DNA of 64,000 nt from Candidatus Omnitrophota bacterium (GCA_028715415.1 JAQURX010000001.1:90584-154583); one strand, 5' to 3'; shown: positions 2,813-33,519, counted from the stretch's first letter. The notes: generated by a model not told the origin, from the sequence alone. Numbers and translations are program-made.

Positions 2813-3957
2813 AAGCAAATAGTCGAAAAATTAAACTGCTTCATGTTACTAGCACTCCCAGTGGAATCGGGGGTATAGAAAAACTACTTTTGTTGATTTC
2901 GGAAAAATACGATAAAGCAAGTTTTGAATTATATTTCTGTAATCTCTTTAGTAAAAGCGATGATGAGATTTATTTGTCTGGTTTAAAGCAAAGAGGATTT
3001 AAGCCGTTTTCCCTAAAGGGGAATTCTTCCCGAAAGGCGTTATTATTTATCCCGGCTCTTTCCGCTTATATTAAGAATAATAAAATTGATATTGTTCATA
3101 CTTGGCTTTTTCATTCAAATTTAATCGGACAAATTGCAGCATTGCCTAATCCTTGCATAAGAGTTTTGTCAAGGCAGTATAAAGATTATTTCTTTATTTA
3201 TAAGAATATACTTAAGCAAAAGATTGATATGGTTTCACATAGAATTGCGCACAAGATTGTCGCTTGTTCTGAAGAGATTAAAAGGCACCTTGTCGAAGTA
3301 GAAAAAATTCCAAAGGAAAAAATTGAGGTTATCTACAATTCGGTAGATTTAAATAGAATGTGTTCGTGCGCTGAAAATAAGAAGAAGATTATACACGAAT
3401 TTGGCCTTGAGGGGAAAAAATGTATTGGAGTTGTAGCAAATCTGCACCCCCGAAAAGGGCATGAATACCTTTTTGTTGCAGTAAGCTTGCTTAAATTAAG
3501 AATTCCTAATATCAAAGTTTTGTGTATTGGGGAAGGGCCATATAGGAAACATCTACAGGAAGAGGCAGATAGGTTGAATATTCTTGGTAATGTTATATTT
3601 ACAGGTTATCGAGAAGATATCCCTGATTTAATTTCTGCAATGGATATTGTAGTTCAGCCTTCTATTGAAGAAGGATTTGGAATATCTCTTATTGAGGCCA
3701 TGTCAATGAATAAACCTATCGTTGCGTCTCTAGTAGGAGGCATTCCAGAGGTTATTGGAAATTATGTGGGTGGTGTATTAGTAAAACCTAAAGATGCCGA
3801 TGCTTTGTATCAAGAAATTTATGGTATTTTGAGCAATCAGAATTTCAGTCTTAATATCGCAAACAAAGGGCGCGAAGTTGTTGAAGCAAGGTTTGGAGCA
3901 GAGCAGATGATCAGAAGCTATGAAGCGCTTTACTTGGATTTAATAAAAAACAAATGA
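2809..3957 (+). CDS. Glycosyltransferase family 4 (GT-B fold)
   Basis: EGFGISLIEAMSMNKPIVAS near the C-terminus; its ATG overlaps the upstream stop (ATGA). Confidence 0.75.
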   Translation: MKANSRKIKLLHVTSTPSGIGGIEKLLLLISEKYDKASFELYFCNLFSKSDDEIYLSGLKQRGFKPFSLKGNSSRKALLFIPALSAYIKNNKIDIVHTWLFHSNLIGQIAALPNPCIRVLSRQYKDYFFIYKNILKQKIDMVSHRIAHKIVACSEEIKRHLVEVEKIPKEKIEVIYNSVDLNRMCSCAENKKKIIHEFGLEGKKCIGVVANLHPRKGHEYLFVAVSLLKLRIPNIKVLCIGEGPYRKHLQEEADRLNILGNVIFTGYREDIPDLISAMDIVVQPSIEEGFGISLIEAMSMNKPIVASLVGGIPEVIGNYVGGVLVKPKDADALYQEIYGILSNQNFSLNIANKGREVVEARFGAEQMIRSYEALYLDLIKNK

Positions 3958-5000
3958 ATAAAATTATCAGGTATTTAAAGCTGGCTTTGGGGATTTATTT
4001 AAACAAACCATTTATAGGCCCTTACAGCGTTCAACTAGGCTTAAGCGATGTATGCAATTATCAGTGTGTTATGTGTAATGTTTTTGCAAGGAAATCTACC
4101 GGTAGCTATCAAGGCGGGAACCGCTCATTAATGGAATTTAATACAGCAAAAGAAGTCTTATATTCTTTGGCGGAGATGGGAACCAAGAATATTAATTTGT
4201 GTGGATATGGTGAAACATTGATTTATCCGAGGATTAAAGAAATTGTAGCGATTGCAAAAGAATTAAAAATGAAAGTTGACATCACTACTAATGGATATTT
4301 CCTTTCAAAAGAGCTTATTGATGATTTCAGTGATTCAAAATTAGACGGATTTTATATTAGCCTTAATTCATCTTCAAAGCAAACTTATGCTTTAATCCAT
4401 GAAGGAAGCAAGCAGGAGGATTTCTCGAGAATCCTTGAAGCCATTAATTATGCAAAGTCTAAGGGTATAACCGTTGTTTTGTCTTTTGTGGTTATGAGCA
4501 TTAATTACCGAGAAATAATCGGTTTTATCGATTTAGCTGAGAAACTTAAAGTTGATGAAATAATATTCAGGGAGCTGGGAATTGGATATTTGACTGACAA
4601 GTCGCTTATCCTGAATAAAGAGGCGATTGATGAGTTAAGAAAACTTAATAGGAATAAATTATCTTCAGTAGCTAATAATTTTCGTTCCTTTCTTGATGTT
4701 TTGGGCTATCAAAAGAAGAAGGCAGTTGATTGTTTTGCGGGATTTATTGGTGGATCTATTATTACAGCGCAGGGATCGGTATTCCCTTGTTGCAATTGTA
4801 GCGACTCAATTGGTAATATTTACGAGAATAATATTAAGTCTATTTGGTATTCATTTAAGTATCAAAGTTTCCGCAGGCTAGGTAAGAATATGCATAAGGA
4901 TGATAAATATCCTACAGGATGTTTATGTAAAACATGTCCTACGTACACTATAAATTCTCGTGTTCAGCATATTCTTTTTCCTTGGAGAAAATTATTTTGA
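3954..5000 (+). CDS. Radical SAM enzyme with SPASM/twitch-like C-terminal Cys cluster
   Basis: CNYQCVMCN (CxxxCxxC) near the N-terminus; C-terminal cysteines CFAGF...FPCCNCSDSIGNIY...CLCKTCP. Confidence 0.7.
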   Translation: MNKIIRYLKLALGIYLNKPFIGPYSVQLGLSDVCNYQCVMCNVFARKSTGSYQGGNRSLMEFNTAKEVLYSLAEMGTKNINLCGYGETLIYPRIKEIVAIAKELKMKVDITTNGYFLSKELIDDFSDSKLDGFYISLNSSSKQTYALIHEGSKQEDFSRILEAINYAKSKGITVVLSFVVMSINYREIIGFIDLAEKLKVDEIIFRELGIGYLTDKSLILNKEAIDELRKLNRNKLSSVANNFRSFLDVLGYQKKKAVDCFAGFIGGSIITAQGSVFPCCNCSDSIGNIYENNIKSIWYSFKYQSFRRLGKNMHKDDKYPTGCLCKTCPTYTINSRVQHILFPWRKLF

Positions 5001-6325
5001 AATATATTATTTTATCAAGTTTATTCTTATTGGGGTTATTTATTTCTCCGGCTTGGGCATTGCTTATTCTGATTACATTTTTGGTTTTAATTCTTCTCGC
5101 AAGAGATCAAGATCCCACAGATAAAAATTTTCTAATGAGCCTGTTCTTGATTGGATTATCCCTTAGGCTGATTTTTGTATTCATAGTCCAATTTTATCTT
5201 GTAAACAAAGGATTTTGTCCTGGAGCAATAGATTCTTTTGCTGATGCTTTTGAAGGGTCTATTTTTTTCGATGAGCATAATTTTATAAAAGCTTCAAGAG
5301 AGATATCTTTTGGATTAAGTAACTACGGAGATTATTATTTTAGAAATGCTCATTTAGTGATAATTTCTTGGTTTTTCTCTAATTTTGGTTACGATCCCCT
5401 TTTTGGTAAGCTGTTAAATTGTCTTTGGGGAGTTTTTTCTGCTCTGCTTGTTTACCGGTGCACTCGGATTATTTTTGTTGATTACGCCATTGCAAAGTTC
5501 GCTGCGATTTTTACCATGTTTTATCCTTCTCTTTTATTCTGGTCAGTAACAAATTTAAGGGATCAGGTTATTATCTTCTTGGTGGTATTGTTTTTTTATG
5601 TTTTGTTGAAGTTTTATAATAGGAATTTCTTTTATGGTTTTTCCTTAGCGTTGATTGTTGCGTTTATAATTAATATCTTCCGCAGCGGTTATTTTTTTAT
5701 TTTTGCAATTTTTCTAGTTGGTGTTTCCTTGGTTAGGTTTATAAAAAAAAGGAGAATAATTCTTAGAAGCCTGCTTGTAGGAGTGATTTTTATTTTATTC
5801 TTCACTTTATCTTCTAAGAATGTTATTTCGTTTGGTAATAGATTCTTATTAAGGGCGGCAGACAAACAAATCAGCAATGCCACTGCTACTGAATCAGAGG
5901 GAAACTTTCTTCTTTTCCCTTTAGAATTTCAGCATCCTTCAAAGCATAAATTTGTTCCATTGCGGATTGTAAAAAATGCTTATCTGAATGGATTGTTCTA
6001 TGCTGTTTTTGCTCCTTTTCCATGGGGATCCGATATAAAGACCTTTATGGGCAGTATGATTATTGTAGAAGCATTAATTTGGTATTTTTGTTTAGTATTT
6101 ATTATTATCGGAATCATAATAGGGATTTATAAAAATAAATTATGTTTGCTAGCGTTTAGTTTTTTGTTTATTAATGTTTCATTCCTTGCTTTATTTGAAG
6201 GTAATGTTGGTACATTGTTTAGGCACAGGGCTGTAATTATGCCTATTTACTTTATTTTCTTAGGAAATGGGTTTGTTTTTGTGTTCAGGAGGTTCTTGCA
6301 TGTGTGGAATTTGCGGAATAATTGA
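4934..6325 (+). CDS. Polytopic integral membrane protein (possible GT-C glycosyltransferase or polymerase); start uncertain, an internal Met near 5135 is possible
   Basis: Many hydrophobic segments throughout; no soluble catalytic motif recognised; the 5' end overlaps the upstream gene by about 67 nt, so a later start is likely. Confidence 0.5.
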   Translation: MSYVHYKFSCSAYSFSLEKIILKYIILSSLFLLGLFISPAWALLILITFLVLILLARDQDPTDKNFLMSLFLIGLSLRLIFVFIVQFYLVNKGFCPGAIDSFADAFEGSIFFDEHNFIKASREISFGLSNYGDYYFRNAHLVIISWFFSNFGYDPLFGKLLNCLWGVFSALLVYRCTRIIFVDYAIAKFAAIFTMFYPSLLFWSVTNLRDQVIIFLVVLFFYVLLKFYNRNFFYGFSLALIVAFIINIFRSGYFFIFAIFLVGVSLVRFIKKRRIILRSLLVGVIFILFFTLSSKNVISFGNRFLLRAADKQISNATATESEGNFLLFPLEFQHPSKHKFVPLRIVKNAYLNGLFYAVFAPFPWGSDIKTFMGSMIIVEALIWYFCLVFIIIGIIIGIYKNKLCLLAFSFLFINVSFLALFEGNVGTLFRHRAVIMPIYFIFLGNGFVFVFRRFLHVWNLRNN

Positions 6326-8222
6326 TTTAAGCAGCGGGAAAGACCTAAACAGCTATATAAAATCTATGATGGATAAAATGGCTCATCGAGGGCCAGATGA
6401 CAGCGGGACTTTTTTTGATTATAAAAAGAATAGTGGTAGTTCCGGTATAATTTCAATTGGACTGGGGCATAGGAGGCTTTCAATCATTGATTTAAATTCT
6501 GGACACCAACCGATCCATAACGAAGATAAAAGCATTTGGATAGTATTGAATGGAGAAATCTATAATTATCTTGAATTGCGTTTTGATTTGGAAAAGCAAG
6601 GACACATTTTTGCAACCTTAAGCGATACAGAAGTAGTGGTGCATCTTTATGAGCAATACGGGCAAGATTGCGTAAAACATCTCCGTGGTATGTTTGCTTT
6701 TGCAATTTGGGATGTAAAAAATAGCATTTTGTTCATTGCTCGGGATCGCGCAGGGAAGAAGCCACTTGTGTATTATTACAAAAATGGTTTATTTATTTTT
6801 TCTTCTGAACTTTCTTCGCTTTTAGGAAGCGGCTTAATTGAAAGAGAGCTTGATCCTATAGCGTTAGACTATTATTTGACCTTAGGGTATATACCTGCAC
6901 CGTTAACCATATTTAAGAATGTTTTTAAGCTTCCTCATGCACATTCAATTGTTCTTAAGAATAAAGAGCTAAAAGTAAGTAAATATTGGGAACTGGAGTA
7001 TTATCCGAAGCTGGTTATGTCAGAACAGGATGTTGAATCTGAGCTTGAGAGGATATTTGAAGAGTCGGTGAAGATTCGTTTACGAAGCGATGTCCCTTTA
7101 GGGAGTTTTTTAAGCGGAGGAGTCGACTCAAGCGCAGTTGTTTCTATGATGAGCAGGTTAAGCAATCAAAAAATAAAAACTTTTTCCATAGGCTTTGAAG
7201 AAAAAGACTATTCTGAGTTAAAATACGCAAAAAATATTGCGCGGATATTCAATACTGATCATCATGAATTTGTAGTAAAGCCAGATGCTTTGCAGATACT
7301 TCCTCTATTAGTAGAGAGATATGGAGAACCATATGCTGATTCGTCATGTATACCGACGTATTATGTCTCTCGTGAGACAAAGAAATTCGTTACGGTTGCA
7401 CTCAGCGGCGATGGGGGAGACGAATCATTTGCCGGTTATGATCGTTATTACGCTATGCTGGTTGCGGAAGATTATTCAAAATGGAATCCTTTTGTCCGTT
7501 GTTTAGTTGGAAAGATTTCAAATCTTTTCCCAGATTCCGCAAATTCAAAGAATACATTTCGTAGAATAAAGCGTTTTTTGGCAGCTGCAGCACTTCCGGC
7601 AGACGAAAGATATTTACGATGGACAGGGATATGGAATTCAGGTTTAAAAGAGATTTTGTATACTAATGGCTTTAAGGGAATGATTGATCCTCAAGGGCTT
7701 GAATCAAATATGGCGCGTTTCATTAATACTAATATAAATTGGCACCTTGTTGATCGGCTCCTTAAGACAGATGTCTCGAATTATCTTCCTTATGATTTAT
7801 TAACTAAGGTTGATATTGCAAGTATGGCTAACTCACTAGAGGTGCGTTCTCCGTTATTAGATCATAAATTTATGGAATTTGCTGCATGTCTTCCGGTTAG
7901 TTATAAACTGAAAGGAAATATCAAAAAGTATATTTTTAAGAAATATCTGGAGAAGTTTGTTCCCAAGAATAATCTATATAGAACCAAAATGGGTTTTGCT
8001 ATGCCGATTGGGAAGTGGCTGCGGACTGATTTAAGAGGTTTTTTAAAGGAAACCCTCTTGGCTTCAAAAGCCTTAAAAAGAGGTTATTTTAATTCGGAAA
8101 TTGTTATTGGAATGGTAAAACAGCATATTTCTGGCAAATGCGATCATTCTTATCAGTTGTGGTCACTTTTGATGCTTGAGCTTTGGCATCAAAAGTTTTT
8201 TGATGAAGGCAAGATAGCATGA
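6300..8222 (+). CDS. Asparagine synthase (glutamine-hydrolysing)-like amidotransferase, AsnB/WbpS type
   Basis: Starts MCGICGI (class II Ntn glutamine amidotransferase Cys2); SGGVDSS PP-loop; the ORF-track start at 6267 extends upstream of this Cys-2 start. Confidence 0.8.
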   Translation: MCGICGIIDLSSGKDLNSYIKSMMDKMAHRGPDDSGTFFDYKKNSGSSGIISIGLGHRRLSIIDLNSGHQPIHNEDKSIWIVLNGEIYNYLELRFDLEKQGHIFATLSDTEVVVHLYEQYGQDCVKHLRGMFAFAIWDVKNSILFIARDRAGKKPLVYYYKNGLFIFSSELSSLLGSGLIERELDPIALDYYLTLGYIPAPLTIFKNVFKLPHAHSIVLKNKELKVSKYWELEYYPKLVMSEQDVESELERIFEESVKIRLRSDVPLGSFLSGGVDSSAVVSMMSRLSNQKIKTFSIGFEEKDYSELKYAKNIARIFNTDHHEFVVKPDALQILPLLVERYGEPYADSSCIPTYYVSRETKKFVTVALSGDGGDESFAGYDRYYAMLVAEDYSKWNPFVRCLVGKISNLFPDSANSKNTFRRIKRFLAAAALPADERYLRWTGIWNSGLKEILYTNGFKGMIDPQGLESNMARFINTNINWHLVDRLLKTDVSNYLPYDLLTKVDIASMANSLEVRSPLLDHKFMEFAACLPVSYKLKGNIKKYIFKKYLEKFVPKNNLYRTKMGFAMPIGKWLRTDLRGFLKETLLASKALKRGYFNSEIVIGMVKQHISGKCDHSYQLWSLLMLELWHQKFFDEGKIA

Positions 8223-8911
8223 TAAAAAAGATTATTATTGTAATTTTAGTTTTTGGATTAATATATGCTCTATTCAATACCAGATTAACTACTCGTCAAG
8301 GAGTAAATTTTGTAGTTGTTACCAAAGAAATTCCTTTGTACCTTAAGGCATTGGATTTTTTTGATAGACATTATAATTATCAGGAACTAGTAAAGGAAAT
8401 AATTTCTGGTTCTTGTGGTGAAAATGAACGTTTGCTTCGGATCTTTGAATGGACGCATAAAACAATTAAAATGCAGCCGCATGAACTTCCAATTATTGAT
8501 GATCATGTTTGGAATATAATTGTCCGGGGTTACGGGACAAAGGATCAGATTTGCGACGTTTTTGCTACGCTTTGTACTTATGTGGGGTTAAAATCTTTTT
8601 TCAGTGAGTTTAAAAATGATAATAGCGAGCTTTTTGTTCTCGCTTTTGTAAAGATTAGAGGCCAATATCGGGTTTTTGATCCTGTTAATGGTATATATTT
8701 AAGAAATAAAATCGGAGAATTTGCTACCATTGAAAATATATTGAATGGTGATTTTGTTATAAACGCAATAGATAAAAAAATACCTGAAAACTACAATGAT
8801 ATGATTAAAAAGTTTTTAAAATCGGATAAGGTTGATTATAAAAGGTCTTTTATACAGTCGCCTTTAAACAGATTTATCTATGAGGTGAAAAAATGGACAA
8901 ATCAGAAATAA
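8219..8911 (+). CDS. Hypothetical membrane-anchored protein (weak transglutaminase-like resemblance)
   Basis: N-terminal TM helix [15 protein letters not shown]; a Cys-containing segment [15 protein letters not shown]; no confident family assignment. Confidence 0.4.
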
Positions 8912-10470
8912 AAGTAGGAATAGTAGGAGTTGGGTATTGGGGTAGTAACCTTGTTCGAGTTTTCTCGAAATTAGGTGTACTTAGTGCAATTTGTGATGAG
9001 GATATTAAAAAACTAAAATCGATAGCTCATGATTATCCGGGGATTAGAACTTATACATCTTACCATGATTTAATTGCTGATCCGGGAATAAATGCGGTTG
9101 TAATTGCAACTCCTGCAAAGACTCATTTTGAAATTGCTAAGTGTGTTTTAATTTCCTGTAAAGATGTTTTTGTTGAAAAACCACTTTCTTTGACTCCTGA
9201 AGAAGGATCTGAGCTTATTGCCTTAGCGCATAAGACAAAGAGAGTCCTTATGGTTGGGCATATACTTGAATATCATCCTGCGATTTGTAAACTAAAAGAA
9301 ATGATGGATAATGGAGACCTCGGGAAAATTCAATATATATATTCAAACCGCTTGAACTTGGGTAAAATCCGTAAAGAAGAGAATATTCTCTGGAGCTTCG
9401 CGCCTCACGATATATCAATTATTTTATTACTTTTGAATGAATTGCCAGAATCCGTTTCTTCATCGGGAGGGAGTTATTTAAATCATGAAGTCGCGGATGT
9501 AACCATAAGTTTACTTAATTTTTCAAATGGTGTAAAGGGGCATATTTTTGTTAGTTGGCTTCATCCTTATAAGGAGCAGAAGCTTATTGTAGTTGGCGAT
9601 AAAAAGATGGCTGTCTTCGATGATGTTGCCCAAGAGGACAAGTTAATTGTTTATAACCATACAATTAATTGGATCGGCCGACTTCCTATTCCTAAAAAAG
9701 AATCTGCGCAGCGTATTAAAGTTGAACCGGGGGAACCTCTATTTCTCGAGTGTTCTCATTTTTTAGATTGTATTCGTACGAGAAAGTGCCCAAAAACAGA
9801 TGGTAAGAGTGCTTTGCGTGTCCTTAAAGTATTAGATGCTTGTCAAGAGTCGCTTGAACATAAGGGTTCGCTTTGTGCTATTAAACCAGCCATTGAGGAG
9901 GTTCCTTATTATTTTCATCCTAGCGCTGATGTTGAGCTGGGATGCCATATTGGCGAAGGAACGCGGATTTGGCATTATTCTCATATAATGAAGAATGCTA
10001 AAATTGGAAAGAATTGTAGGATAGGGCAAAATGTTTTTATTGGCTCCAATGTATCTATCGGCAATAGTGTAAAGATTCAAAATAATGTTTCGGTTTACGA
10101 TTGCATTACTTTTGAAGATGGTGTTTTTTGTGGGCCTTCTGTAGTTTTTACTAATGTAATTAATCCGCGTAGTTTTATTGAACGTAAGAATGAATACCTT
10201 AGGACCCTTGTGAAGAGAGGAGCTACTATAGGAGCAAATTCTACAATTATTTGTGGGAATACAATCGGTGAATATGCATTTATAGGAGCAGGGGCGGTTG
10301 TAACAAAAGATGTTTTACCTTATAGCCTTGTGTATGGAAATCCTGCTATTCAGAAAGGATGGGTGTGTTCGTGTGGGGTGAAACTTGGCCTTAAAAGTAA
10401 AAAGGCAGTTTGCAGGTCATGCAATAAGAAATACCGTATAGCAAAAGGTGTATTAGTAGACTGTAGTTGA
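8893..10470 (+). CDS. Fusion of Gfo/Idh/MocA-family NAD(P) oxidoreductase, left-handed beta-helix (hexapeptide) acyltransferase and a C-terminal Cys4 ribbon
   Basis: [15 protein letters not shown] Rossmann start; the C-terminal half is rich in hexapeptide repeats ([25 protein letters not shown]...); it ends with CSCG...CRSCNKKY. Confidence 0.75.
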
Positions 10471-10472
10471 CT

Positions 10473-11537
10473 ATGAAAAAGAAAAAGATAGTACATATTG
10501 TTGGGGCTCGGCCTCAGTTTATTAAGTGCGCAGCAGTTTATCGTGCGATGAAAGATATGCCAAACGCTCTTTCTGTTATTATTCATACCGGACAGCATTT
10601 TGATGCTAATATGAGCGAAGTATTTATTAATGCATTATCTTTGCCAAAGCCTGATTATTTCTTGAATATTAATTCTTTGTCCCATGGGGCAATGATAGCA
10701 GCAATGCTGGAAAGAATTGAAAAAGCCTTGATTAGGATAAAGCCATATACAGTAGTTGTGTATGGTGATACTAATTCTACTTTAGCAGGTGCCCTTGCGG
10801 CCAAGAAGCTCGGGATTCGACTTGCCCATGTTGAAGCCGGATTACGCAGCTATAATATGAATATGCCTGAAGAAGTCAATCGCGTCTTAACCGACCGTAT
10901 AAGTGATATACTTTTTTGTCCGACGAAAAAAGCAGTTGTTAATCTAAACAATGAAGGTTACCGTAGAAGAGATTGTTCAATAATTCTTTCAGGGGATGTT
11001 ATGTATGATATCTGTAGGTATTATTCTGTTTTTCAAAAGGAGCCTTCCTTTAAGGTTCCGGATAAATATGCCTTAGTTACAATCCATAGAGCTGAAAATA
11101 CTGATTCGTTAGCCAGATTAAAATCCATTTGGATTGCATTGAATAAAATTGCTAAGGAAATTAATTTGATTCTTCCTGTTCATCCGAGAACAAGAAAGGT
11201 ATTATATGAGTATAAAATTAGAAGTAATTTTCAGGTAGTTGACCCAGTAGGTTATCTTGAGAGTATTTTCTTAATTTCTCACAGCAAAATTATTTTAACG
11301 GATAGCGGTGGCCTTCAGAAAGAGGCCTTTTTCTTCAAGAAGCCATGTGTTATTCTTAGAGAGGAAACGGAATGGACAGAGCTTATAAATTCGGGAGTTG
11401 CTGAGCTTTCTGGGGTTGATTCGGAAAGAATTTATTATTTTTATGCAAAAATGTCCAAGAAAAAAATTAGATTTAACCATTCTTTTTATGGTGATGGATA
11501 TGCGAGCCAGAAAATTGCAAAAGTTCTAATCCAATAG
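10473..11537 (+). CDS. UDP-N-acetylglucosamine 2-epimerase (WecB/NeuC family)
   Basis: IVHIVGARPQFIKCAAV, HTGQHFD, GDTNSTLAGALAA, VEAGLRSYN, PEEVNR; the ATG at 10473 is preferred over the TTG at 10467. Confidence 0.8.
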   Translation: MKKKKIVHIVGARPQFIKCAAVYRAMKDMPNALSVIIHTGQHFDANMSEVFINALSLPKPDYFLNINSLSHGAMIAAMLERIEKALIRIKPYTVVVYGDTNSTLAGALAAKKLGIRLAHVEAGLRSYNMNMPEEVNRVLTDRISDILFCPTKKAVVNLNNEGYRRRDCSIILSGDVMYDICRYYSVFQKEPSFKVPDKYALVTIHRAENTDSLARLKSIWIALNKIAKEINLILPVHPRTRKVLYEYKIRSNFQVVDPVGYLESIFLISHSKIILTDSGGLQKEAFFFKKPCVILREETEWTELINSGVAELSGVDSERIYYFYAKMSKKKIRFNHSFYGDGYASQKIAKVLIQ

Positions 11538-25252: not shown

Positions 25253-25287
25253 AGTAGTTTATTTCTTTTTGATAGGAGCAAAACGTT

Positions 25288-26304
25288 ATGAAAAAACAAT
25301 CGGTATTTATAGTTGCAGAAATATCGGCTAATCATGGACAGAATTTTAAAAGAGCTGTTGCTTTAATAAAGAAAGCAAAAGAATGTGGAGCCGATGCAGT
25401 AAAATTCCAGACGTATACACCAGATACTATTACTATAGATGTGGATAATAAATATTTTAGCATACAGTATCCTCGTTTGGGAAAACAGAGCCTTTATCAA
25501 TTGTATAGCAAGGCTTACACGCCTTGGTCTTGGTTTAAAAAGCTTAAAAAAATAGCTGATGATATGGGGATCGTATTTTTTTCTACAGCTTTTGATAAGA
25601 CGTCAGTAGATTTTCTGGAAGAGCTTCAGGTTCCAATGCATAAAATTGCTTCTTTTGAATTGGTAGACTTGCCATTAATTGAATATGCTGCACAGAAGAA
25701 GAAGCCAATTATAATTTCTACCGGAATGGGAACAATTAAAGAAATTAAAGAAGCGGTTATTGTCGCGCAGAAAGCAGGCAATAAGAATATAGTATTATTA
25801 AAATGTGTTAGTGCTTACCCTGCTCATCCGGAAGAGATGAATTTGAAAACTATCCCCGATATGAAGAAAATGTTCAATTTGCCGGTAGGCCTTTCTGATC
25901 ATTCATTGGATGCGGCGGTGCCGGTTTCTGCAGTTTCTTTGGGGGCGGTTTTTATTGAGAAGCATTTCACTCTATCTCGTTCAATAAAGACTCCAGATTC
26001 TTTTTTTTCAACCGAACCTTCTGAATTTAAGGAGATTGTTAAAAACATTCGGATAGTTGAAAAGGCAATTGGAAAAGTGCATTACGGGGTCACAAAGGAA
26101 GATTTTGATAATCATGTTTTCCGTAGATCTTTATTCGCGGTTGAGCCTATCAAAAAAGGAGAAATATTTTCAGAAATTAATTTAAGATCTATACGTCCGG
26201 CCTATGGATTGGCACCGAAATATTTAAAAGAAATATTAGGAAAAAGATCAAGGTTAAATATAAAAAAAGGAACTCCTTTGACTTGGGGGATGGTTGATGA
26301 ATAG
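25288..26304 (+). CDS. pseI: Nonulosonic acid synthase (NeuB family; PseI-like pseudaminic acid synthase)
   Basis: FIVAEISANHGQNFKRA...GADAVKFQTY is a NeuB N-terminus; the C-terminal SAF-like domain has RSIRPAYGL. Confidence 0.8.
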   Translation: MKKQSVFIVAEISANHGQNFKRAVALIKKAKECGADAVKFQTYTPDTITIDVDNKYFSIQYPRLGKQSLYQLYSKAYTPWSWFKKLKKIADDMGIVFFSTAFDKTSVDFLEELQVPMHKIASFELVDLPLIEYAAQKKKPIIISTGMGTIKEIKEAVIVAQKAGNKNIVLLKCVSAYPAHPEEMNLKTIPDMKKMFNLPVGLSDHSLDAAVPVSAVSLGAVFIEKHFTLSRSIKTPDSFFSTEPSEFKEIVKNIRIVEKAIGKVHYGVTKEDFDNHVFRRSLFAVEPIKKGEIFSEINLRSIRPAYGLAPKYLKEILGKRSRLNIKKGTPLTWGMVDE

Positions 26305-27631
26305 TTCGATGTGGAGCAAGGCTGTGAAGGGTGCTCCGGTTTCTTTAATAATTGAAATATTCAAACACAGGCTTTTTAGGGGTGGAGTTACGTATTTTTT
26401 TGCAACTATAATTGGGTCTGCCATTCCAATGCTTCTTCTCCCTGTCCTGACAAGATATCTGACTCCTATGGAATATGGTACGCTTGCAATATTCCAGGTT
26501 ATTGTATCTCTATTGGTAATACTAATAGGTATAGATACACATGCTGCTGTAGGGGTTGTTTATTTTCAAAAGAGCGGGAATGAAATAAGATCATATATTG
26601 GTAATATCCTTTTAGTTATTGTTGCTTGTTTTGTTATGTTTTTATTTATCGCGGTATTCTTCCATAGACATATCGCGCAAACCTTAAATATTCCTCCTTA
26701 CTTAATATTTATTTCTTTATTTGTGGCTTTTTTTACTGCAATCACAAACGTCGGATTAATGATGTGGCAGGTTACCCATAATTCAAAGTTCTATGCTTTG
26801 TATCAAGTTTCGATGAGTTTATTCAACGCACTTTCTTCAATATTACTTGTTGTTATTTTTCATATGGGATTAAAGGGTCGGATATTTGGAATATCCTCAG
26901 CTGCTATTGTTTTTGGCTTTATTAGTATGTATATATTATTTCGTAACTTTAGGATGAATTTTAAGATAAAAAAAGAGTTTATCAAAGATATATTTATTTT
27001 TTCGCTTCCACTTGTGCCTCACGAAATATCAGGTTGGATAATGTCAGGCACAGACAAGATTTTCCTGAATAATTTTGTTGGTTTAAAAATGACAGGTATA
27101 TATTCTGTAGGTTATCAGATTGGAATGATTCTTGGTCTTGTAACTGCCGCTTTTAATCGAGCATGGGGGCCATATCTTTTTCAGGCGCTTTCTACTATAA
27201 CTTACAGCAAAAAGATTAAAATAGTAAAGGTTACTTATTTATATTTTATTGTTATTTTGTTGCTAGCGTTTTTGTTAAGCATGGTTTCTCCAATCATAAT
27301 TCAAATCCTAGTGAATAAAAATTTTCAAGCTTCAAATGAATTTGTAATTTGGATTGCGCTTGGGGCCGCTGCAATGGGGATGTATTATATGGTTGTTAAT
27401 TATTTATTTTTTGTTAAGAAGACGCATATCCTAGCGCTAGCTACATTTATTTCAGCGCTTGTTAATATAGGATTAAATTATTCTTTGATTAAAATGTATG
27501 GTGCTATGGGTGCCGCAAAAGCAAATGCGATTTCTTCATTCTTTACTTTTTTTCTAGTGTGGTTATTAAGTGCAAAGTATTATCCAATGCCTTGGTTTTC
27601 TTGGAGCAAAATAAAGTCAATTGGAGCATAA
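26294..27631 (+). CDS. Wzx-like oligosaccharide flippase (polysaccharide biosynthesis protein family)
   Basis: About 12 predicted TM helices; length and position (right after the nonulosonate synthase) are typical of Wzx. Confidence 0.6.
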   Translation: MMNSSMWSKAVKGAPVSLIIEIFKHRLFRGGVTYFFATIIGSAIPMLLLPVLTRYLTPMEYGTLAIFQVIVSLLVILIGIDTHAAVGVVYFQKSGNEIRSYIGNILLVIVACFVMFLFIAVFFHRHIAQTLNIPPYLIFISLFVAFFTAITNVGLMMWQVTHNSKFYALYQVSMSLFNALSSILLVVIFHMGLKGRIFGISSAAIVFGFISMYILFRNFRMNFKIKKEFIKDIFIFSLPLVPHEISGWIMSGTDKIFLNNFVGLKMTGIYSVGYQIGMILGLVTAAFNRAWGPYLFQALSTITYSKKIKIVKVTYLYFIVILLLAFLLSMVSPIIIQILVNKNFQASNEFVIWIALGAAAMGMYYMVVNYLFFVKKTHILALATFISALVNIGLNYSLIKMYGAMGAAKANAISSFFTFFLVWLLSAKYYPMPWFSWSKIKSIGA

Positions 27632-29057
27632 ATTGGATAGAGTGTTGAGTTTGAAAGAATTAATGGCCATAGAAATAGATTTGGAAGTCCTAGACTTTCG
27701 GTTTAAATATAGAGATACGCTTATGTGGCCATTTATAAGGAATGCCTTGTTTCTAAAAGCAATATATGAAATGTTTGGGCTTGCCAACTCTAATGAGTTT
27801 AGTAATAAAGCTTATCGCTTAATCCCTTCGTACTTGTTTTTTACTTTAAATAGCAACCCCTTTACCAAGAATTTAAACGGAAAAAATGATATATTGTTCT
27901 TTAGTTCAGGTGTGGTAAATGTAAAGCACGGTCATAAATATATAAATAGATTATACGATCATTTTGCTTTGGAATATCCTAGAAAAAGCTTAATAATTGA
28001 AGATTCTTTTCGTATGCAATACTTTAGGCCTAGGTTTTTCCCAAATGTTAAAAGTCTCGACTATATCTCGATTGCCTCTTTAATAAAATCACGTCTTAAG
28101 AAAACTGTTAATACTGACAAAGAAAATATTGATAGGTTTATAAATCTTATAAAAAGCAGGTTTCTATATAAGTTCAAAAATGATGTTTGGAAAGGTTTGA
28201 CTTTGGTTTTGGAGAAAATATCTGTTAAGCTTCCTTTTCTCTATGAGTATTATTCTAGATTGTTTGAGATAATAGAACCTAAAATCATGTTTTTAGAAGA
28301 TGGGAGTTATGGTTCTATGTCGTATGTTTTAAAATGGGCGGTTGAAAAGGGTATTGTTACGGGAGAGTTTCAGCATGGGATAACCTCGTTAAATCATCCC
28401 GCATATAACTATAGCCAGGAGATATTAGGGTCTGCATACAAAGATTACTTGCCGCAGTATTATTTAACTTTTGGTAAATACTGGAGTTCGGCTATAAATA
28501 CTTCTTCTAAAGATGTCATAATAGGCAATCCTTATATTATTGAGTATGTTAAGAGCTTGACAGAAAAAAGCAAGATTAATACTAAGAGGCGTATATTGTT
28601 TATTTCCGGAGGAACTGTTTATTCCTTTATAAAGAAATTAGCAGTAGGATTGAGAAAAACTTTGCCTGTGTCCGAATTTGATATTGCGATACGCCCATAC
28701 CCGGGAGAGATTGGTTTAGTTAAAGAGAGGTATGGGAATTTAGAACAAGATAATATTTCTCTAGATTTTGGCAATTTGTATGATTCTTTATCTTCTTATG
28801 ATATTATAGTTGGGGTAGAATTCTCAACTGTGCTTTTTGAAGCGATGTTATTTAAGAAAAAAATATTTGTTTTTGATGGACCTCTATTCTTTTATAATAC
28901 AAAAGATCCGATATTTAATACTTTTAAAGATGCCCAGGAATTAAGTATTAAGATTTTTGATAGAGTTGATAATTCTTATGATGTTAATTATTATTGGGAC
29001 CCGAGCCCTTGTTTGAATTATCGTAATTTTATAAATACCACAATTGGGAAGTTCTAA
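27621..29057 (+). CDS. Hypothetical protein (candidate glycosyl or nonulosonate transferase)
   Basis: 478-aa soluble protein with no recognisable motif; sits between the flippase and the amidinotransferase genes. Confidence 0.4.
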   Translation: MEHKLDRVLSLKELMAIEIDLEVLDFRFKYRDTLMWPFIRNALFLKAIYEMFGLANSNEFSNKAYRLIPSYLFFTLNSNPFTKNLNGKNDILFFSSGVVNVKHGHKYINRLYDHFALEYPRKSLIIEDSFRMQYFRPRFFPNVKSLDYISIASLIKSRLKKTVNTDKENIDRFINLIKSRFLYKFKNDVWKGLTLVLEKISVKLPFLYEYYSRLFEIIEPKIMFLEDGSYGSMSYVLKWAVEKGIVTGEFQHGITSLNHPAYNYSQEILGSAYKDYLPQYYLTFGKYWSSAINTSSKDVIIGNPYIIEYVKSLTEKSKINTKRRILFISGGTVYSFIKKLAVGLRKTLPVSEFDIAIRPYPGEIGLVKERYGNLEQDNISLDFGNLYDSLSSYDIIVGVEFSTVLFEAMLFKKKIFVFDGPLFFYNTKDPIFNTFKDAQELSIKIFDRVDNSYDVNYYWDPSPCLNYRNFINTTIGKF

Positions 29058-29070
29058 GATAATTTACTCT

Positions 29071-29085
29071 TGCTAAATTTTAGCA
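29071..29085. promoter_or_regulatory. Inverted repeat TGCTAAA-T-TTTAGCA (candidate operator)
   Basis: 7-bp perfect arms with a 1-nt centre, in the 86-bp gap upstream of the hisF-like gene. Confidence 0.35.
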
Positions 29086-29143
29086 TCGTAAAGGTGGATA
29101 ATTTGTTAATATTGTTAGTGGAAATATTTAATTTAACCTAAGA

Positions 29144-29899
29144 ATGAATACGAGAGTAATACCTTGTTTATTAATCAAGAATAGGTCTTTGGTAAAAACA
29201 GAGAAGTTCAAGAATGCTGTTTATATTGGAGATCCTATAAACGCAGTGAAAATATTTAATGAAAAAGAAGTTGATGAATTAGTTTTTTTGGATATATCTG
29301 CAAGTATTGAAAAGAGAGGTATTGATTTTGGTTTAATTGAGGATATCGCAAGTGAGTGCTTTATGCCTTTTTCTTATGGGGGAGGAATAAAAAGCATTGA
29401 AGATATCAAGCGCTTAATTAATCTCGGTGTAGAGAAAATTATTCTTAACAGTATAGCAGTTGCAAATATAAAATTTGTTGAAGAGGCCGCGCAACTTTTT
29501 GGAAGTCAGAGCATAATAGTTTCTATCGACGCAAAAAGAGATATGTTTGGAAGGTGTTGTGTATATACTCATGGTGGGCGAGTAAAGACTAAGCTTCATC
29601 CCGTTGGTTTTGCTTTAGAGATAGAGAAAAGCGGGGCTGGAGAAATACTGCTTACTTCGATAGATATGGAAGGTACTTTGAACGGGTATGATTTAGAGCT
29701 TATTAAGGAGGTGTCTGGTGCTGTAACGATTCCTGTTATAGCTAATGGAGGCGCTGGACAATTGGGGCATTTTCAACAAGCTGTACAAAAAGGAGCGTCT
29801 GCTGTTGCAGCAGGAAGTATGTTTGTATTCCACGGTAAATATAAAGCTGTACTTATAAGTTATCCTCATATAAATGAGGTAAGAAAATTGATGGGGTAA
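29144..29899 (+). CDS. Imidazole glycerol phosphate synthase cyclase subunit-like (HisF-like, WbuZ-type)
   Basis: RVIPCLLIKNRSLVKTEKFKN...GDPINAVK...VDELVFLDISAS matches the HisF TIM-barrel N-terminus. Confidence 0.75.
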   Translation: MNTRVIPCLLIKNRSLVKTEKFKNAVYIGDPINAVKIFNEKEVDELVFLDISASIEKRGIDFGLIEDIASECFMPFSYGGGIKSIEDIKRLINLGVEKIILNSIAVANIKFVEEAAQLFGSQSIIVSIDAKRDMFGRCCVYTHGGRVKTKLHPVGFALEIEKSGAGEILLTSIDMEGTLNGYDLELIKEVSGAVTIPVIANGGAGQLGHFQQAVQKGASAVAAGSMFVFHGKYKAVLISYPHINEVRKLMG

Positions 29900-29900
29900 T

Positions 29901-31064
29901 ATGGTTTTATATAATTCATTAGAAGAATATCGGGTTTGTAAATACTGTATTATGGATACAAGCGATCCTGAAATTATTTTTGATGAAGAGGGGAGATGTA
30001 GCCATTGCAAGCGGTATTTTCATATTGCGCAAGAGAGAATATTGCCTGATGACGAGCTTAAAATCCGCCTTGGCGCGCTCGTTGAGAAAATAAAAAATAA
30101 GGGTAGAGGAAGAAAATATGATTGTCTAATTGGGGTAAGCGGTGGAGTAGATAGCACTTATGTAGCTTATATCGTTAAGAAACTCGGATTACGTCCTCTT
30201 GCAGTGCATCTTGACAATGGATGGGATTCTGAGTTAGCGGTTAAGAATATCGAGCTTACCTTGAAAAAGTTAGGGATTGATTTGTTTACTTATGTATTAA
30301 ATTGGGAAGAATTTAAAGATCTTCAGCTATCTTTTTTAAAGGCGTCGACTCCTGATTTAGAAATACCTACTGATCAAGCAATTATCGCTTCGTTGTTTTT
30401 TGTCGCAAGCAGAAACCGTATTAAATATATACTTTTAGGTGAAAATGTCGTTACTGAAGCAATTATGCCTAAGCGGTGGTCATCCGGCCAAAGCGATTGG
30501 AAGTATATAAAGAATGTACATAAGAAATTCGGGAAATTTAAGCTAAAAAGGTACCCATACTTTAGTTTTTTTAAAAGATTGTACTATTTTTATTTAAAAT
30601 GCCATGTTATCAATATCCTTAATTACATCCCGTATGATAAAAATGAGGCAATAGACATATTAGAGAAAGAAATCGGTTGGAAAAATTATACTTCTAAGCA
30701 TTATGAGTCTATTTATACGCGTTTCGTTCAAGGGTATATTCTACCCAAGAAATTTGGTTTTGACAAGCGAAGGGCGCACTTATCAACTCTTATTTGTTCT
30801 GGCCAGATGTCAAGAGAGCGCGCATTGGAAGAAATTGCTAAAGACCCGTATTCTTCAGGAGATCTTAAGCGGCAAGATTTTAATTATGTAGTAAAGAAGC
30901 TGGGCTTGACCGAAGGAGAATTTGAGAGACTTTTAAGCTTGCCTATAAAGAAGTTTGATGATTATCCTTCGTATGCAAGTTCATCATTTTATAGAATAAT
31001 TAGGTTTCTTGAGTTGAACAAAACAATCAAGGCTTGGGTTCAGATGTTTTTAGGGCGGCGTTAA
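29901..31064 (+). CDS. N-acetyl sugar amidotransferase (WbuX/PseA/WbpG family; PP-loop ATP pyrophosphatase)
   Basis: CKYCIMDTSDPEIIFDEEGRCSHC zinc ribbon followed by CLIGVSGGVDSTYVAYI PP-loop; pairs with the adjacent HisF-like gene. Confidence 0.75.
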   Translation: MVLYNSLEEYRVCKYCIMDTSDPEIIFDEEGRCSHCKRYFHIAQERILPDDELKIRLGALVEKIKNKGRGRKYDCLIGVSGGVDSTYVAYIVKKLGLRPLAVHLDNGWDSELAVKNIELTLKKLGIDLFTYVLNWEEFKDLQLSFLKASTPDLEIPTDQAIIASLFFVASRNRIKYILLGENVVTEAIMPKRWSSGQSDWKYIKNVHKKFGKFKLKRYPYFSFFKRLYYFYLKCHVINILNYIPYDKNEAIDILEKEIGWKNYTSKHYESIYTRFVQGYILPKKFGFDKRRAHLSTLICSGQMSRERALEEIAKDPYSSGDLKRQDFNYVVKKLGLTEGEFERLLSLPIKKFDDYPSYASSSFYRIIRFLELNKTIKAWVQMFLGRR

Positions 31065-31081
31065 GAATATGGTAAAATCTC

Positions 31082-32038
31082 ATGGATAATATTAACTGTA
31101 TTTTTTGTAATATTCCTAGTGATATAATTAGTGTTGAAGAAAATGGGTATCAGGCAAAAGAATGCCCTAAATGCGGATTGGTGTATATATCACCACGTCC
31201 CGAAAGAATAGCTTTGAAGGAATTATACCAGCACGACCGGGCTCATGTATCTGCGAGAGGCCATTTTTCCGATATTAAAATGCCTCGATTACATGAATTA
31301 CATCATTTAAAAATAATCAAAAAGTTTAAATCTTCCGGTGCTCTGCTTGAAATTGGCCCTGGGGCAGGCACTTTTCTTGAGGAAGCAAAGAAAAAAGGCT
31401 TTAACGTGTTTGCCGTAGAGCCGAATCCTTTGCAAGCCAAGTATATAGAAAATAAATTAAATATTACATGTCAGATAAGCGATATCTGTAATGCTTCTTT
31501 TTGTGAAAATACTTTTGACATAATCTATCATAGGGACGTAACAAGTCATTTTTACGATCCTATTGCTTCATTTAAGAAGATGCATAGCTTACTTAAAGAT
31601 GATGGTATCCTGGTTTTTGAAACAGGATTTTACGGATCTCCTAAATATATGCCTCTTTTTCTAAACCATCAATTTCCCGACCATTTGTTTACTTTTAGTG
31701 AAAAGAGTATCCGGAATTTATTGGACAAAGCTGGCTTTTCTGAGACAGTAAGTTATGTTTATTCTTCTGTCCCGATGCTCTTTTTTAAGAAATTGATACA
31801 TCCAATTATCGATTCTGTTAAGAAAAACAAAACTCGAGGCGGTACTTCTTCTAAATTAAAGAAAATAGTTTATAAAGAGAGCGTAAATCAGGAGTATAGC
31901 AAATTCTTAATTATTTTGAAAAGATGGTATTTTAGAATATGCCATTTTTTAATGTACCATGTTGGATATTTAAGCAAAAAGTCCGATAGGCCACGCAAAA
32001 TATTATTAGTTGCCCGCAAAATGGTGAATACAAAATGA
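31082..32038 (+). CDS. Class I SAM-dependent methyltransferase with N-terminal zinc ribbon
   Basis: CIFCN...CPKCGL, then LLEIGPGAGTFLEEA (motif I) and DIIYHRDV. Confidence 0.65.
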   Translation: MDNINCIFCNIPSDIISVEENGYQAKECPKCGLVYISPRPERIALKELYQHDRAHVSARGHFSDIKMPRLHELHHLKIIKKFKSSGALLEIGPGAGTFLEEAKKKGFNVFAVEPNPLQAKYIENKLNITCQISDICNASFCENTFDIIYHRDVTSHFYDPIASFKKMHSLLKDDGILVFETGFYGSPKYMPLFLNHQFPDHLFTFSEKSIRNLLDKAGFSETVSYVYSSVPMLFFKKLIHPIIDSVKKNKTRGGTSSKLKKIVYKESVNQEYSKFLIILKRWYFRICHFLMYHVGYLSKKSDRPRKILLVARKMVNTK

Positions 32039-33519
32039 AAATTTTATTAATAAGGCCGCCAATTGCTTTTGCGGATAGAAATGCGATAACAAAAAGAGAG
32101 ATTTTCTTACCTCCGGTTGGGTTATCTTATATTGCATCTTTTCTTAAACAGAACAACTTTGATTCTGTTAAGGTGGTTGATCTGTCTTCGGAAACACTAG
32201 AATATACTAGGAAGTTCTTTGTAAATACCCAAGCTGATTTTGTAGGCATAAGTTCGTTGACTGGCCAGCATTTGGAAGCTTTTACCATTGCTCGGTTAGC
32301 GAAGGAATTTATAAAAACAAATCCTGTCGTTGTGTTTGGCGGGCCACACGTCAGTGCCGAAGGTTTGGATGTTCAAATTATGGAGAATATTCCCTATATT
32401 GATTTTATCGTAAGAGGAGAAGGGGAAATCACAGTTCTTGAGCTTATTAAGGCTCTTAGGGATAGGAATTCTTTTGAGGATATAGACGGTATAACAATGC
32501 GCAGGAAAGATAAGAGTATTTTCCGTACTAAAGATCGCGCTCCAATTTCTAACCTTGATATTTTGCCGTTTCCTGATTACTCCGAATATGATTTTAGTGT
32601 AAAGAATAATTCTTTTGATGGGCATCATTTTATTAAGAGTAAGGCAGGTAATGATCAAGCGTTTCGTTACGCCCCGATTATCAGCTCGAGAGGCTGTCCA
32701 TATGATTGTCAATTTTGTTCCCAATTTTGGGGGAAAAATGTCCGTATGAGGAGCCCTGAGAATATTTTTGCAGAGATGACGAATTTTTACAATGAAAGAA
32801 AAATTACTCATTTTACTTTTCTTGATGATTGTTTTAATGTTTCGATCCCGCGCATAAGAAAACTGTGCCAATATATTATTAATGGAAATATGCCTTTTAC
32901 ATGGACCGCGGTTGGGAGGGCGAATTTTATTACAGAAGAATTATTATGCGATATGAAGAAAGCTGGATGTGTGGGGATTGATTTTGGCGTTGAGTCCGGA
33001 GATCCCGGAATACTTAATACCATTAATAAAAAGATTTCTATACAAACTATAGAGCAGGCTTTTGCTTTAACGAGGAAATACGGGCTTCGTTCAAAAGCCC
33101 TGCTAATGGTGGGTAATCCAGGAGAAACAAAAACGAGTATCAATAATACAATTAAGCTCCTTAAGCATGCTCTACCAGATACTATTGATGTTGCTCCGAT
33201 TAAAATTTTCCCGAATTCACATTTGCATCGCCTAGCATTAAAACAAGGCTTGATTGCCCAAGACTATTGGTTGACTCATTCTTCTTCCCCTTATTATACG
33301 GCGGAGTATACGGCTGACCAATTGCGCTATCTTAGGCTTAAAGTTATTTTAGGTTATTACCTTGCTAAAAAGAATATTTCTATGGCAATAAAATTATCAT
33401 TGTTGATATTGGGAGTAAGTTTTATCATTTCTACGGGCAAATCTATTGACTCAATACGAGATGTGTTGCTTAAGATTCCTTGCATCGGTTTTATTTTAAG
33501 GAAATTCAAAACTGTTTAA
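32035..33519 (+). CDS. B12-binding-domain radical SAM enzyme (class B), paralog of 17895-19436
   Basis: N-terminal B12-like Rossmann region (VVVFGGPHVSA); SSRGCPYDCQFCS (CxxxCxxC). Confidence 0.7.
   Translation: MKILLIRPPIAFADRNAITKREIFLPPVGLSYIASFLKQNNFDSVKVVDLSSETLEYTRKFFVNTQADFVGISSLTGQHLEAFTIARLAKEFIKTNPVVVFGGPHVSAEGLDVQIMENIPYIDFIVRGEGEITVLELIKALRDRNSFEDIDGITMRRKDKSIFRTKDRAPISNLDILPFPDYSEYDFSVKNNSFDGHHFIKSKAGNDQAFRYAPIISSRGCPYDCQFCSQFWGKNVRMRSPENIFAEMTNFYNERKITHFTFLDDCFNVSIPRIRKLCQYIINGNMPFTWTAVGRANFITEELLCDMKKAGCVGIDFGVESGDPGILNTINKKISIQTIEQAFALTRKYGLRSKALLMVGNPGETKTSINNTIKLLKHALPDTIDVAPIKIFPNSHLHRLALKQGLIAQDYWLTHSSSPYYTAEYTADQLRYLRLKVILGYYLAKKNISMAIKLSLLILGVSFIISTGKSIDSIRDVLLKIPCIGFILRKFKTV

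Follow-up and report, generated by a model that had tools for sequence, protein, structure and literature searches.

The question raised by this locus is what four radical S-adenosylmethionine (SAM) enzymes contribute to the synthesis of a bacterial surface glycan. The locus lies in a 64,000-nucleotide stretch of a Candidatus Omnitrophota bacterium genome (GCA_028715415.1 JAQURX010000001.1:90584-154583), hereafter the window, which consists of a single long + strand gene array. The enzymes are named in order along it as rSAM1 (3954-5000), rSAM2 (17895-19436), rSAM3 (21436-22503) and rSAM4 (32035-33519). An earlier reading made from the sequence alone (hereafter the sequence-only reading) had placed these genes in a sugar-biosynthesis cluster and proposed radical modification of the sugar scaffold. 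The present analysis indicates that the four genes probably encode dedicated glycan-tailoring enzymes of a Wzx/Wzy-type surface-polysaccharide locus, arranged in three modules and acting by the mechanism proposed below. The predicted tailoring role is strongly supported by synteny, and as the specific chemistry we infer C-methylation, oxidation or epimerisation.

Four intact open reading frames (ORFs) were found exactly at these coordinates, as the sequence-only reading had stated. Each protein contains the CxxxCxxC motif for binding of the [4Fe-4S] cluster (C34/C38/C41 in rSAM1, C200/C204/C207 in rSAM2, C87/C91/C94 in rSAM3 and C221/C225/C228 in rSAM4), the cysteines of which are invariant among orthologues, and each matches the Pfam Radical_SAM family PF04055 above the gathering score (E = 1.8e-21, 1.8e-19, 5.2e-13 and 5.2e-22, respectively). 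By motif and family match, all four belong to the radical SAM superfamily. The Pfam SPASM family PF13186 is additionally matched by rSAM1 (348 aa; 38.3 bits) and rSAM3 (355 aa; 45.5 bits) against a cut-off of 21.5 bits. The N-terminal B12-binding-like domains anticipated for rSAM2 (513 aa) and rSAM4 (494 aa) were confirmed by Pfam PF02310 (51.0 and 56.6 bits, cut-off 32.1). These domain assignments are far beyond chance. The remaining ORFs of the 64 kb were scanned with Pfam down to a length of 100 aa, and no fifth radical SAM domain was detected among them.

The sequence-only reading had itself named housekeeping enzymes recruited by chance as the outcome that would overturn it. Weak family-level similarity to MoaA, BchE, HemZ and MiaB does exist, which is what would be expected if the genes were housekeeping genes (MoaA, HemN, MiaB, anSME or BchE) fortuitously located in a glycan locus. 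However, for none of the four proteins is an NCBIfam cut-off reached, whether of a curated housekeeping family or of a characterised one. Scores were 103 and 85 bits for the tungsten-cofactor maturase (cut-off 380), 76.7 for MoaA (325), 75 for PqqE (381), 23.6 for anSME (349) and 135.6 and 159.1 for BchE (481), with negligible values for HemZ (31 against 321) and the MiaB family (24.9 against 251). The methylase families PhpK (90 and 156 against 600) and KedN5 (65 and 98 against 700) were likewise not reached. Scores are thus 3- to 20-fold under the equivalog cut-offs, and the synteny of the orthologues with pse and other glycan genes is kept in other genomes and across phyla. These two lines of evidence refute housekeeping orthology, and a chance placement of housekeeping genes is accordingly regarded as extremely improbable.

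The four enzymes do not belong to one system. The two SPASM-family proteins are 22% identical to each other and the two B12 proteins 29%. These identities, together with differing phylogenetic distributions, rule out recent paralogues or a single coordinated four-enzyme system. The four genes instead fall into three independent modules: the pair of rSAM3 and a methyltransferase, the pair of rSAM2 and a GT-B-like protein, and the Omnitrophota-type enzymes rSAM1 and rSAM4.

The nonulosonic acids that are displayed on flagella, capsules and lipopolysaccharides (sialic, legionaminic and pseudaminic acids) shape immune and phage recognition. To our knowledge, all characterised pathways for their synthesis rely on NAD(P), pyridoxal phosphate and acyl-CoA chemistry. 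In the window, rSAM2 and rSAM3 are surrounded by genes for pseudaminic acid (Pse), and four NCBIfam equivalogs identify a Pse cluster: PseB (12801-13799; 490.8 bits, cut-off 407.75), PseC (13804-14949; 488.2 bits, cut-off 423.5), PseG (22522-23580; 217.9 bits, cut-off 153.55) and PseI (25288-26304; 454 bits, cut-off 340.25). All four are shared with the canonical pathway of PseB, PseC, PseH, PseG, PseI and PseF. Unlike that pathway, the window encodes a CTP_transf_3 cytidylyltransferase (15806-16582; Pfam) that falls below the PseF equivalog (33.7 against 205.7 bits), and a formyltransferase (23577-24482; Pfam) occupies the slot of PseH; these two proteins presumably fill the PseF and PseH roles. 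The cassette further differs from the canonical pathway by five to seven extra conserved genes. These comprise an aldo-keto reductase (AKR; 14937-15815), a class III aminotransferase (16566-17888) and a WbqC-family protein (24482-25252), all assigned by Pfam, the pair of a class I SAM methyltransferase (20530-21411; Pfam Methyltransf_23) and rSAM3 directly downstream of it, and, in some cassettes, rSAM2 with a 366-aa GT-B-like protein (19433-20533).

The cassette is followed by a Wzx-type flippase (26294-27631; Pfam Polysacc_synt, multiple hydrophobic segments), which implies that the product enters a Wzx/Wzy-built polysaccharide. Besides Wzx, the Pfam and NCBIfam assignments for the window include many glycosyltransferases, a WbuX/HisH/HisF acetamidino set and a Wzy_C-type ligase. 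Six methyltransferase domains were identified by Pfam (8-742 and beginning at 20530, 31082, 36101, 36930 and 37583). The setting described by the sequence-only reading, among nonulosonate genes and six methyltransferases in an O-antigen- or capsule-type cluster, is therefore sound.

The same cassette was recovered from other genomes and metagenome contigs, here given L-numbers (L001 is the complete genome of Desulfonema magnum, CP061800). For rSAM2, there are about 70 homologue clusters, which a clean gap in score sets apart from all other members of the superfamily. Gene contexts were compared in the D. magnum genome, a Desulfarculia chromosome, a Logan contig and ten GTDB species representatives, the last including Syntrophaceae, Verrucomicrobia, Thermodesulfovibrionales, Planctomycetia, Bacteroidia and Terriglobia. 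Orthologues with 52-79% identity occur in D. magnum, Desulfarculia, Syntrophaceae, Verrucomicrobia, Planctomycetia, Terriglobia and others, and Pse-type genes (PseB, PseC or NeuB family) were present in all long enough, interpretable loci with an orthologue of at least 52% identity. Even in the 52-57% subfamily of Planctomycetia and Terriglobia, rSAM2 remains among genes for PseB, PseC, NeuB and a cytidylyltransferase. In all loci where rSAM2 is at least 63% identical, the recurrent set comprises PseB, PseC, AKR, CTP_transf_3, class III aminotransferase, PseG, the B12 radical SAM enzyme, a protein of about 370 aa, the class I methyltransferase, a twitch radical SAM enzyme of about 355 aa, an acyltransferase, WbqC and PseI, with some contigs ending before the full set is visible. 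PseB, PseC, AKR, the cytidylyltransferase and the class III aminotransferase are all kept in the cassettes of other phyla. The radical SAM proteins rank with the most strongly conserved products of the cassette (54-69% identity, compared with 25-57% for most other cassette genes).

Metagenome contigs were also scanned independently with rSAM3 as the starting point, and hence without reference to the B12 enzyme, which yielded 28 orthologous loci (47-72% identity); pattern-based scans of this kind may miss family members. Every sufficiently long locus contained pse genes, in the recurrent order PseB-PseC-AKR-cytidylyltransferase-aminotransferase-PseG-methyltransferase-twitch enzyme-(GNAT or formyltransferase)-WbqC-PseI. 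Upstream sequence of 1 kb or more was available for 21 loci; the partner methyltransferase was found in every one of them and was directly adjacent in 19. In gene content, rSAM3 and its upstream methyltransferase form an obligate pair. An rSAM2 orthologue was present in only four of the loci (L022, L023, L026 and L047), beside the GT-B-like gene wherever the contig extended far enough. Since the methyltransferase always accompanies the twitch enzyme and rSAM2 is found in only four loci, the methyltransferase-twitch pair is the core addition to the Pse pathway, and the B12 enzyme with its GT-B-like partner an optional second one. The optional pair occurs in a minority of cassettes, with examples in Desulfobacterota (among them the cultured D. 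magnum), Verrucomicrobiota and Omnitrophota.

Co-occurrence with pse genes, proposed as a check on the sequence-only reading, therefore holds for rSAM2 and rSAM3, whereas rSAM1 and rSAM4 are associated with glycan loci of mainly Omnitrophota. In the searchable literature, from which most subscription journals were absent, no paper was found that ties radical SAM enzymes to nonulosonate (pseudaminic or legionaminic acid), flagellin-glycosylation, O-antigen or capsule clusters. Apparently, rSAM2 and rSAM3 define a previously undescribed, cross-phylum variant of the Pse cassette. The arrangement had been called rare; this is accurate for characterised systems but not for anaerobes, as related Omnitrophota glycan loci contain two to four radical SAM genes each and the D. 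magnum locus three.

Gene fusions within the cassettes offer Rosetta-stone hints at consecutive steps. The cytidylyltransferase and the aminotransferase are fused in three lineages (L001/L013, 1646-3736; L027, 2283-4310; L036, 5200-7284), which points to action on, or next to, a CMP-linked sugar. An extended WbqC protein of 435 aa occurs in L036 (10337-11644). In L021, a different B12-type radical SAM gene (3491-4879), the product of which is 29% identical to rSAM4, lies between PseC and AKR in a cassette without the rSAM2-type enzyme; this suggests that Pse clusters may have acquired class B radical SAM genes on more than one occasion. Just downstream of the D. magnum cassette, a 1555-aa fusion (L001, 13687-18354) combines radical SAM/SPASM, methyltransferase and GH88/squalene-hopene-cyclase-like regions. 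In one lineage the cassette is followed by a Maf-type (MptE-like plus TPR) protein, which implies flagellin glycosylation in that lineage, and in another a capsule-synthesis-family gene (Pfam Capsule_synth) is nearby.

The auxiliary domains of rSAM1 and rSAM3 were compared with the seven-cysteine SPASM motif (CX9-15GX4C-gap-CX2CX5CX3C-gap-C). Neither protein has the complete motif: conserved C-terminal cysteines number six in rSAM1 and five in rSAM3, and the CX2CX5CX3C block is present in neither. Both show the twitch pattern, CX(n)GX4C followed by CXXC. In HMMER alignments with BtrN (4m7t_A), C260, C279, C325 and C328 of rSAM1 and C283, C302, C347 and C350 of rSAM3 pair with the four cysteines of the BtrN C-terminal domain, which we take from the published structure to be the auxiliary-cluster ligands. 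The four in rSAM3, together with C291, are invariant across the aligned orthologues; in rSAM1 the conserved cysteines are 34/38/41, 260, 279, 280, 282, 325 and 328. Four BtrN-aligned cysteines without the CX2CX5CX3C block imply one auxiliary cluster, and rSAM1 and rSAM3 each most likely bind a single such cluster, as BtrN does. Of the original label 'SPASM/twitch-like', the twitch part was thus retained and the SPASM part was not.

BtrN, the 2-deoxy-scyllo-inosamine dehydrogenase (DOIA dehydrogenase) of butirosin biosynthesis (PDB 4m7t), is the best PDB sequence match of both proteins, and the suggested BtrN analogy holds for the cysteine pattern of the twitch domains. The likeness (E = 1e-10 and 5e-06) lies for the most part in the auxiliary domain. 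The significant alignment covers the C-terminal domain only, and no aminocyclitol biosynthesis genes occur in the context, so that neither protein is classed as a BtrN orthologue. BtrN is also about 100 residues shorter, and rSAM3 has a conserved 75-residue N-terminal extension. BtrN acts on an amino-sugar-like scaffold, and a transamination step comes next; the Pse cassette likewise includes an aminotransferase. The substrate of BtrN is an aminocyclitol, whereas here it would be an intermediate of the nonulosonate pathway.

For the B12 proteins, the arrangement that defines class B radical SAM enzymes, an N-terminal B12-binding Rossmann domain fused to the radical SAM barrel, was found in both rSAM2 and rSAM4, with cobalamin binding as a prediction. 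An AlphaFold model of rSAM2 built with 55 homologues (pLDDT 91.5) was matched by Foldseek to TsrM, OxsB, MgmA, CysS, AprD4 and TokK (E = 1e-15 to 1e-21, TM 0.57-0.63, identity 14-21%), all of which share these two domains; the matched structures of TsrM, OxsB, CysS and TokK contain bound cobalamin, and the modelled fold is clearly of class B. The sequence-only reading had moved from the B12 domain to methylation. This step was not sustained, as the methylases TsrM, MgmA, CysS and TokK and the non-methylases OxsB and AprD4 matched the model equally well.

It follows that rSAM2 and rSAM4 might not be methylases at all, and might instead resemble OxsB, BchE or AprD4, the last being a radical 1,2-diol dehydratase with a reductase as its partner. 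They would then deoxygenate or rearrange a sugar, with the AKR as reducing partner. Both proteins have their best PDB sequence match in AprD4 (E = 1e-10 for rSAM2 and 2e-26 for rSAM4), BchE and HpnJ are among the top NCBIfam matches of both, OxsB and AprD4 stand level with the methylases in the fold search, and an AKR is present in every cassette. However, the AprD4 likeness is limited to the radical SAM half (for rSAM4, the entire 2e-26 match), and the N-terminal domains match the Pfam B12-binding family above its gathering score. Neither protein belongs to the NCBIfam AprD4 family diol dehydratases (NF033070; 51.8 and 105.1 bits, cut-off 500), and the AKR is also found in cassettes without a B12 enzyme. 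We regard this alternative as somewhat unlikely, and as the strongest of those considered. The kinship with carbohydrate enzymes is upheld: AprD4 has aminoglycoside sugars as substrates, and the same holds for GenK and Fom3-type enzymes. The known class B enzymes differ in belonging to antibiotic pathways, whereas rSAM2 and rSAM4, which reach no NCBIfam model of such enzymes, would act in primary cell-surface glycan biosynthesis, rSAM4 with a predicted membrane anchor.

The GT-B-like protein accompanies rSAM2 in every locus with an orthologue of at least 63% identity. The window copy has no Pfam family. A family member in L004 weakly matches polysialyltransferase (28.3 bits, cut-off 23.3), and further weak matches of the family are to SiaD, KpsC, Epimerase_2, Glyphos_transf and teichoic-acid polymerases, of which SiaD and KpsC, like polysialyltransferase, work with CMP-activated ulosonic acids; a PDB profile search returned weak GT-B matches only, and a KxHPxE motif is conserved. 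In Desulfarculia the protein is fused to a GNAT domain (L002/L011, 8221-9861). Comparison of the family profile with the window PseG and UDP-GlcNAc 2-epimerase was uninformative. A role as CMP-nonulosonate-dependent transferase is a reasonable candidate function.

Under the mechanism that we propose for glycan tailoring, rSAM3 would abstract a hydrogen atom from a hydroxyl-bearing carbon of a Pse intermediate (a UDP-hexose, or free or CMP-linked Pse), and the result would be either a ketone, the outcome in BtrN, or an epimer. The class III aminotransferase or the AKR, which are always present, would process this product, after which the partner methyltransferase would methylate it. Where present, rSAM2 would transfer a methyl group to an unactivated carbon or catalyse a rearrangement of the AprD4/OxsB type. 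The membrane-anchored rSAM4 would modify the lipid-linked repeat unit. More tentatively, and with a likelihood that we place somewhat short of even, the methyltransferase-twitch pair and the optional B12/GT-B-like pair may represent the first radical SAM-dependent steps known in nonulosonic acid synthesis. The resulting Pse derivative would differ in carbon skeleton or stereochemistry, for example by carrying a C-methyl branch or an additional amino group that enters by way of a radical-generated ketone, or by being a new epimer.

The methyltransferase-twitch pair, the B12 enzyme or both could alternatively make or modify a non-sugar substituent, for instance an N-acyl group of an unusual kind or a side chain derived from an amino acid, which is placed on Pse while the skeleton is left untouched. 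The diversity of pseudaminic and legionaminic acids resides mainly in their N-acyl groups. The slot after the twitch gene and before WbqC is always taken by an N-acyl or formyl transferase (in other loci a GNAT or a formyltransferase-like gene), and the ever-present class III aminotransferase is typical of amino-acid and omega-amine chemistry. Against this, the window and L027 keep the pair beside the formyltransferase type, which needs no elaborated acyl donor, and the cassette lacks an acyl carrier protein or ligase. Modification of a substituent is therefore considered unlikely relative to modification of the sugar itself.

Several observations weigh against the tailoring mechanism. The fold search fails to separate methylases from non-methylating class B enzymes, and a PDB sequence search with the partner methyltransferase returned generic class I enzymes only, with no informative relative. 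The single-sequence AlphaFold model of the GT-B-like protein has a pLDDT of 33. Neither a cobalamin riboswitch (Rfam) nor B12 genes were detected within the 64-kb window. A further point comes from the lipopolysaccharide cluster of Legionella pneumophila Sg6/Sg12, which encodes a PseB-like CapD, DegT, AKR, WbuX-like, HisH and HisF proteins, a cytidylyltransferase, a class III aminotransferase (annotated as 'glutamate-1-semialdehyde aminomutase'), PseG, GNAT and NeuB (PMC3694923). Unlike the carriers of the present cassette, L. pneumophila is an aerobe, and radical SAM genes are missing from the published tables of its cluster (PMC3694923). The trio of AKR, cytidylyltransferase and aminotransferase is therefore independent of radical enzymes, and the twitch enzyme and the aminotransferase, for which a coupling is proposed here, are not obligatorily coupled.

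If the more tentative reading, with an altered Pse as product, is correct, the cassette would specify an anaerobe-specific, structurally undescribed class of sialic-acid-like sugars. Known sugar chemistry would be widened by a nonulosonate cassette that includes one or two radical SAM enzymes, radical SAM enzymology would gain new carbohydrate substrates outside antibiotic pathways, and part of the unannotated radical SAM pool of uncultured anaerobes (Omnitrophota, Desulfobacterota and Syntrophaceae) would be accounted for. The proposal is directly testable in D. magnum, a named cultured strain with a complete genome (CP061800) and the full cassette.

The gene group of rSAM4 lies downstream of the Pse cassette and comprises a HisF-like protein (29144-29899; Pfam/NCBIfam), a WbuX N-acetyl sugar amidotransferase (29901-31064; NCBIfam 306 bits, cut-off 203), a methyltransferase (31082-32038; Pfam) and rSAM4 itself, which precedes GT4 and PMT_2 glycosyltransferases. 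The order HisH-HisF-WbuX-methyltransferase-B12 radical SAM-GT4-PMT_2-methyltransferases in L005 matches that of the window. Close homologues of rSAM4 are few (73% and 44-47% identity). Those with a named source are from Omnitrophota, and all three examined are in glycan loci; in L006 and L007, with four and three radical SAM genes respectively, the orthologue follows Wzx. A C-terminal hydrophobic helix (residues 447-468) is kept in near orthologues and suggests that rSAM4 may be membrane-tethered and act near the lipid-linked repeat unit. The HisH-like counterpart of HisF and WbuX (12165-12779; Pfam/NCBIfam) is located 17 kb away in the window, with the whole Pse cassette and Wzx in between, while the three genes are contiguous in L005 (6509-9050). 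This suggests that the set was split by insertion or rearrangement of the Pse cassette.

The hydrophobic helix also raises the question of whether some of these enzymes, rSAM4 in particular, have as substrate not a glycan but a peptide, a protein or a lipid, the last being a membrane lipid, lipid A or the undecaprenyl carrier. Lipid-methylating class B enzymes exist, and HpnR, HpnJ and a 'lipid biosynthesis B12-binding' family are among the NCBIfam matches; twitch and SPASM proteins are often peptide maturases, and AlbA, SkfB and PqqE are among the weak matches. All of these matches are nevertheless far below their cut-offs, no genes resembling precursor peptides or involved in lipid synthesis are adjacent, and the orthologues lie consistently between Wzx, glycosyltransferase and sugar-nucleotide genes. 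A lipid or peptide substrate is thus thought quite improbable, and a glycan remains the favoured one.

A separate set of genes surrounds rSAM1, which is nearly an orphan: among 1.84 billion representatives, only two clusters exceed 40% identity and 63 are found at E<=1e-30. Downstream of it are a polytopic membrane protein (4934-6325; hydropathy), an AsnB-type amidotransferase (6267-8222; Pfam), a 230-aa protein with an N-terminal hydrophobic segment (8219-8911; hydropathy), a fusion of GFO/IDH/MocA and hexapeptide acetyltransferase domains (8893-10470; Pfam) and a UDP-GlcNAc 2-epimerase family protein (10467-11537; Pfam). The neighbours are kept in L008 and L009 (GT4, AsnB, the protein of about 230 aa, the GFO/IDH/MocA-hexapeptide fusion, the 2-epimerase and a 164-aa protein). 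The polytopic membrane protein is next to the rSAM1 orthologue in L008, and L009 has a shorter unannotated ORF instead. The pair of AsnB and the 230-aa protein also occurs in L006 (55% and 44% identity). In gene content, this set resembles a diacetamido-uronate/amidation pathway. Close homologues of rSAM1 and rSAM4 were traced only to uncultured, mainly Omnitrophota loci, and these appear always to be glycan gene clusters. The nearest non-orthologous relatives of rSAM1 are tandem radical SAM multi-enzymes of 900-1900 aa with two to five radical SAM-like stretches.

The glycan locus as a whole occupies about 50 kb (1-50000) with a GC content of 0.33-0.36, compared with 0.37-0.40 for the housekeeping genes that follow (50000-64000), which include GroES/GroEL, an IMPDH-family protein, GuaA, DnaE, HisS, a class II Asp/Asn-type tRNA synthetase and PhoH. 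The contrast fits a variable or horizontally exchanged surface-polysaccharide region. Hypervariable polysaccharide cassettes have been reported in Omnitrophota, as have giant proteins with a radical SAM domain within sugar-metabolism modules, in a preprint that does not include the present cassette (bioRxiv 10.64898/2026.06.07.730766). Rfam and tRNA scans of the 64-kb window found nothing.

Three further genes of the glycan locus were noted. A 164-aa ORF inside it (11638-12132) has weak winged-helix (MarR-like) similarity, and ORFs of the same size follow the 2-epimerase gene in L008 (17680-18174) and L009 (9010-9504); it may be a locus-specific regulator. After Wzx, at the position expected for a polymerase, lies a gene for a soluble 478-aa protein (27621-29057) that has no Pfam or NCBIfam family and no strongly hydrophobic (transmembrane-like) segment; an unannotated gene for 510 aa is found at the matching position in L005 (4970-6502). 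A PDB sequence search with the WbqC-family protein of the cassette returned nothing. The last gene of the glycan locus (47433-49718), immediately behind that of the Wzy_C ligase, encodes a polytopic membrane protein of 761 aa in which a spermidine/spermine synthase domain occupies the central part.

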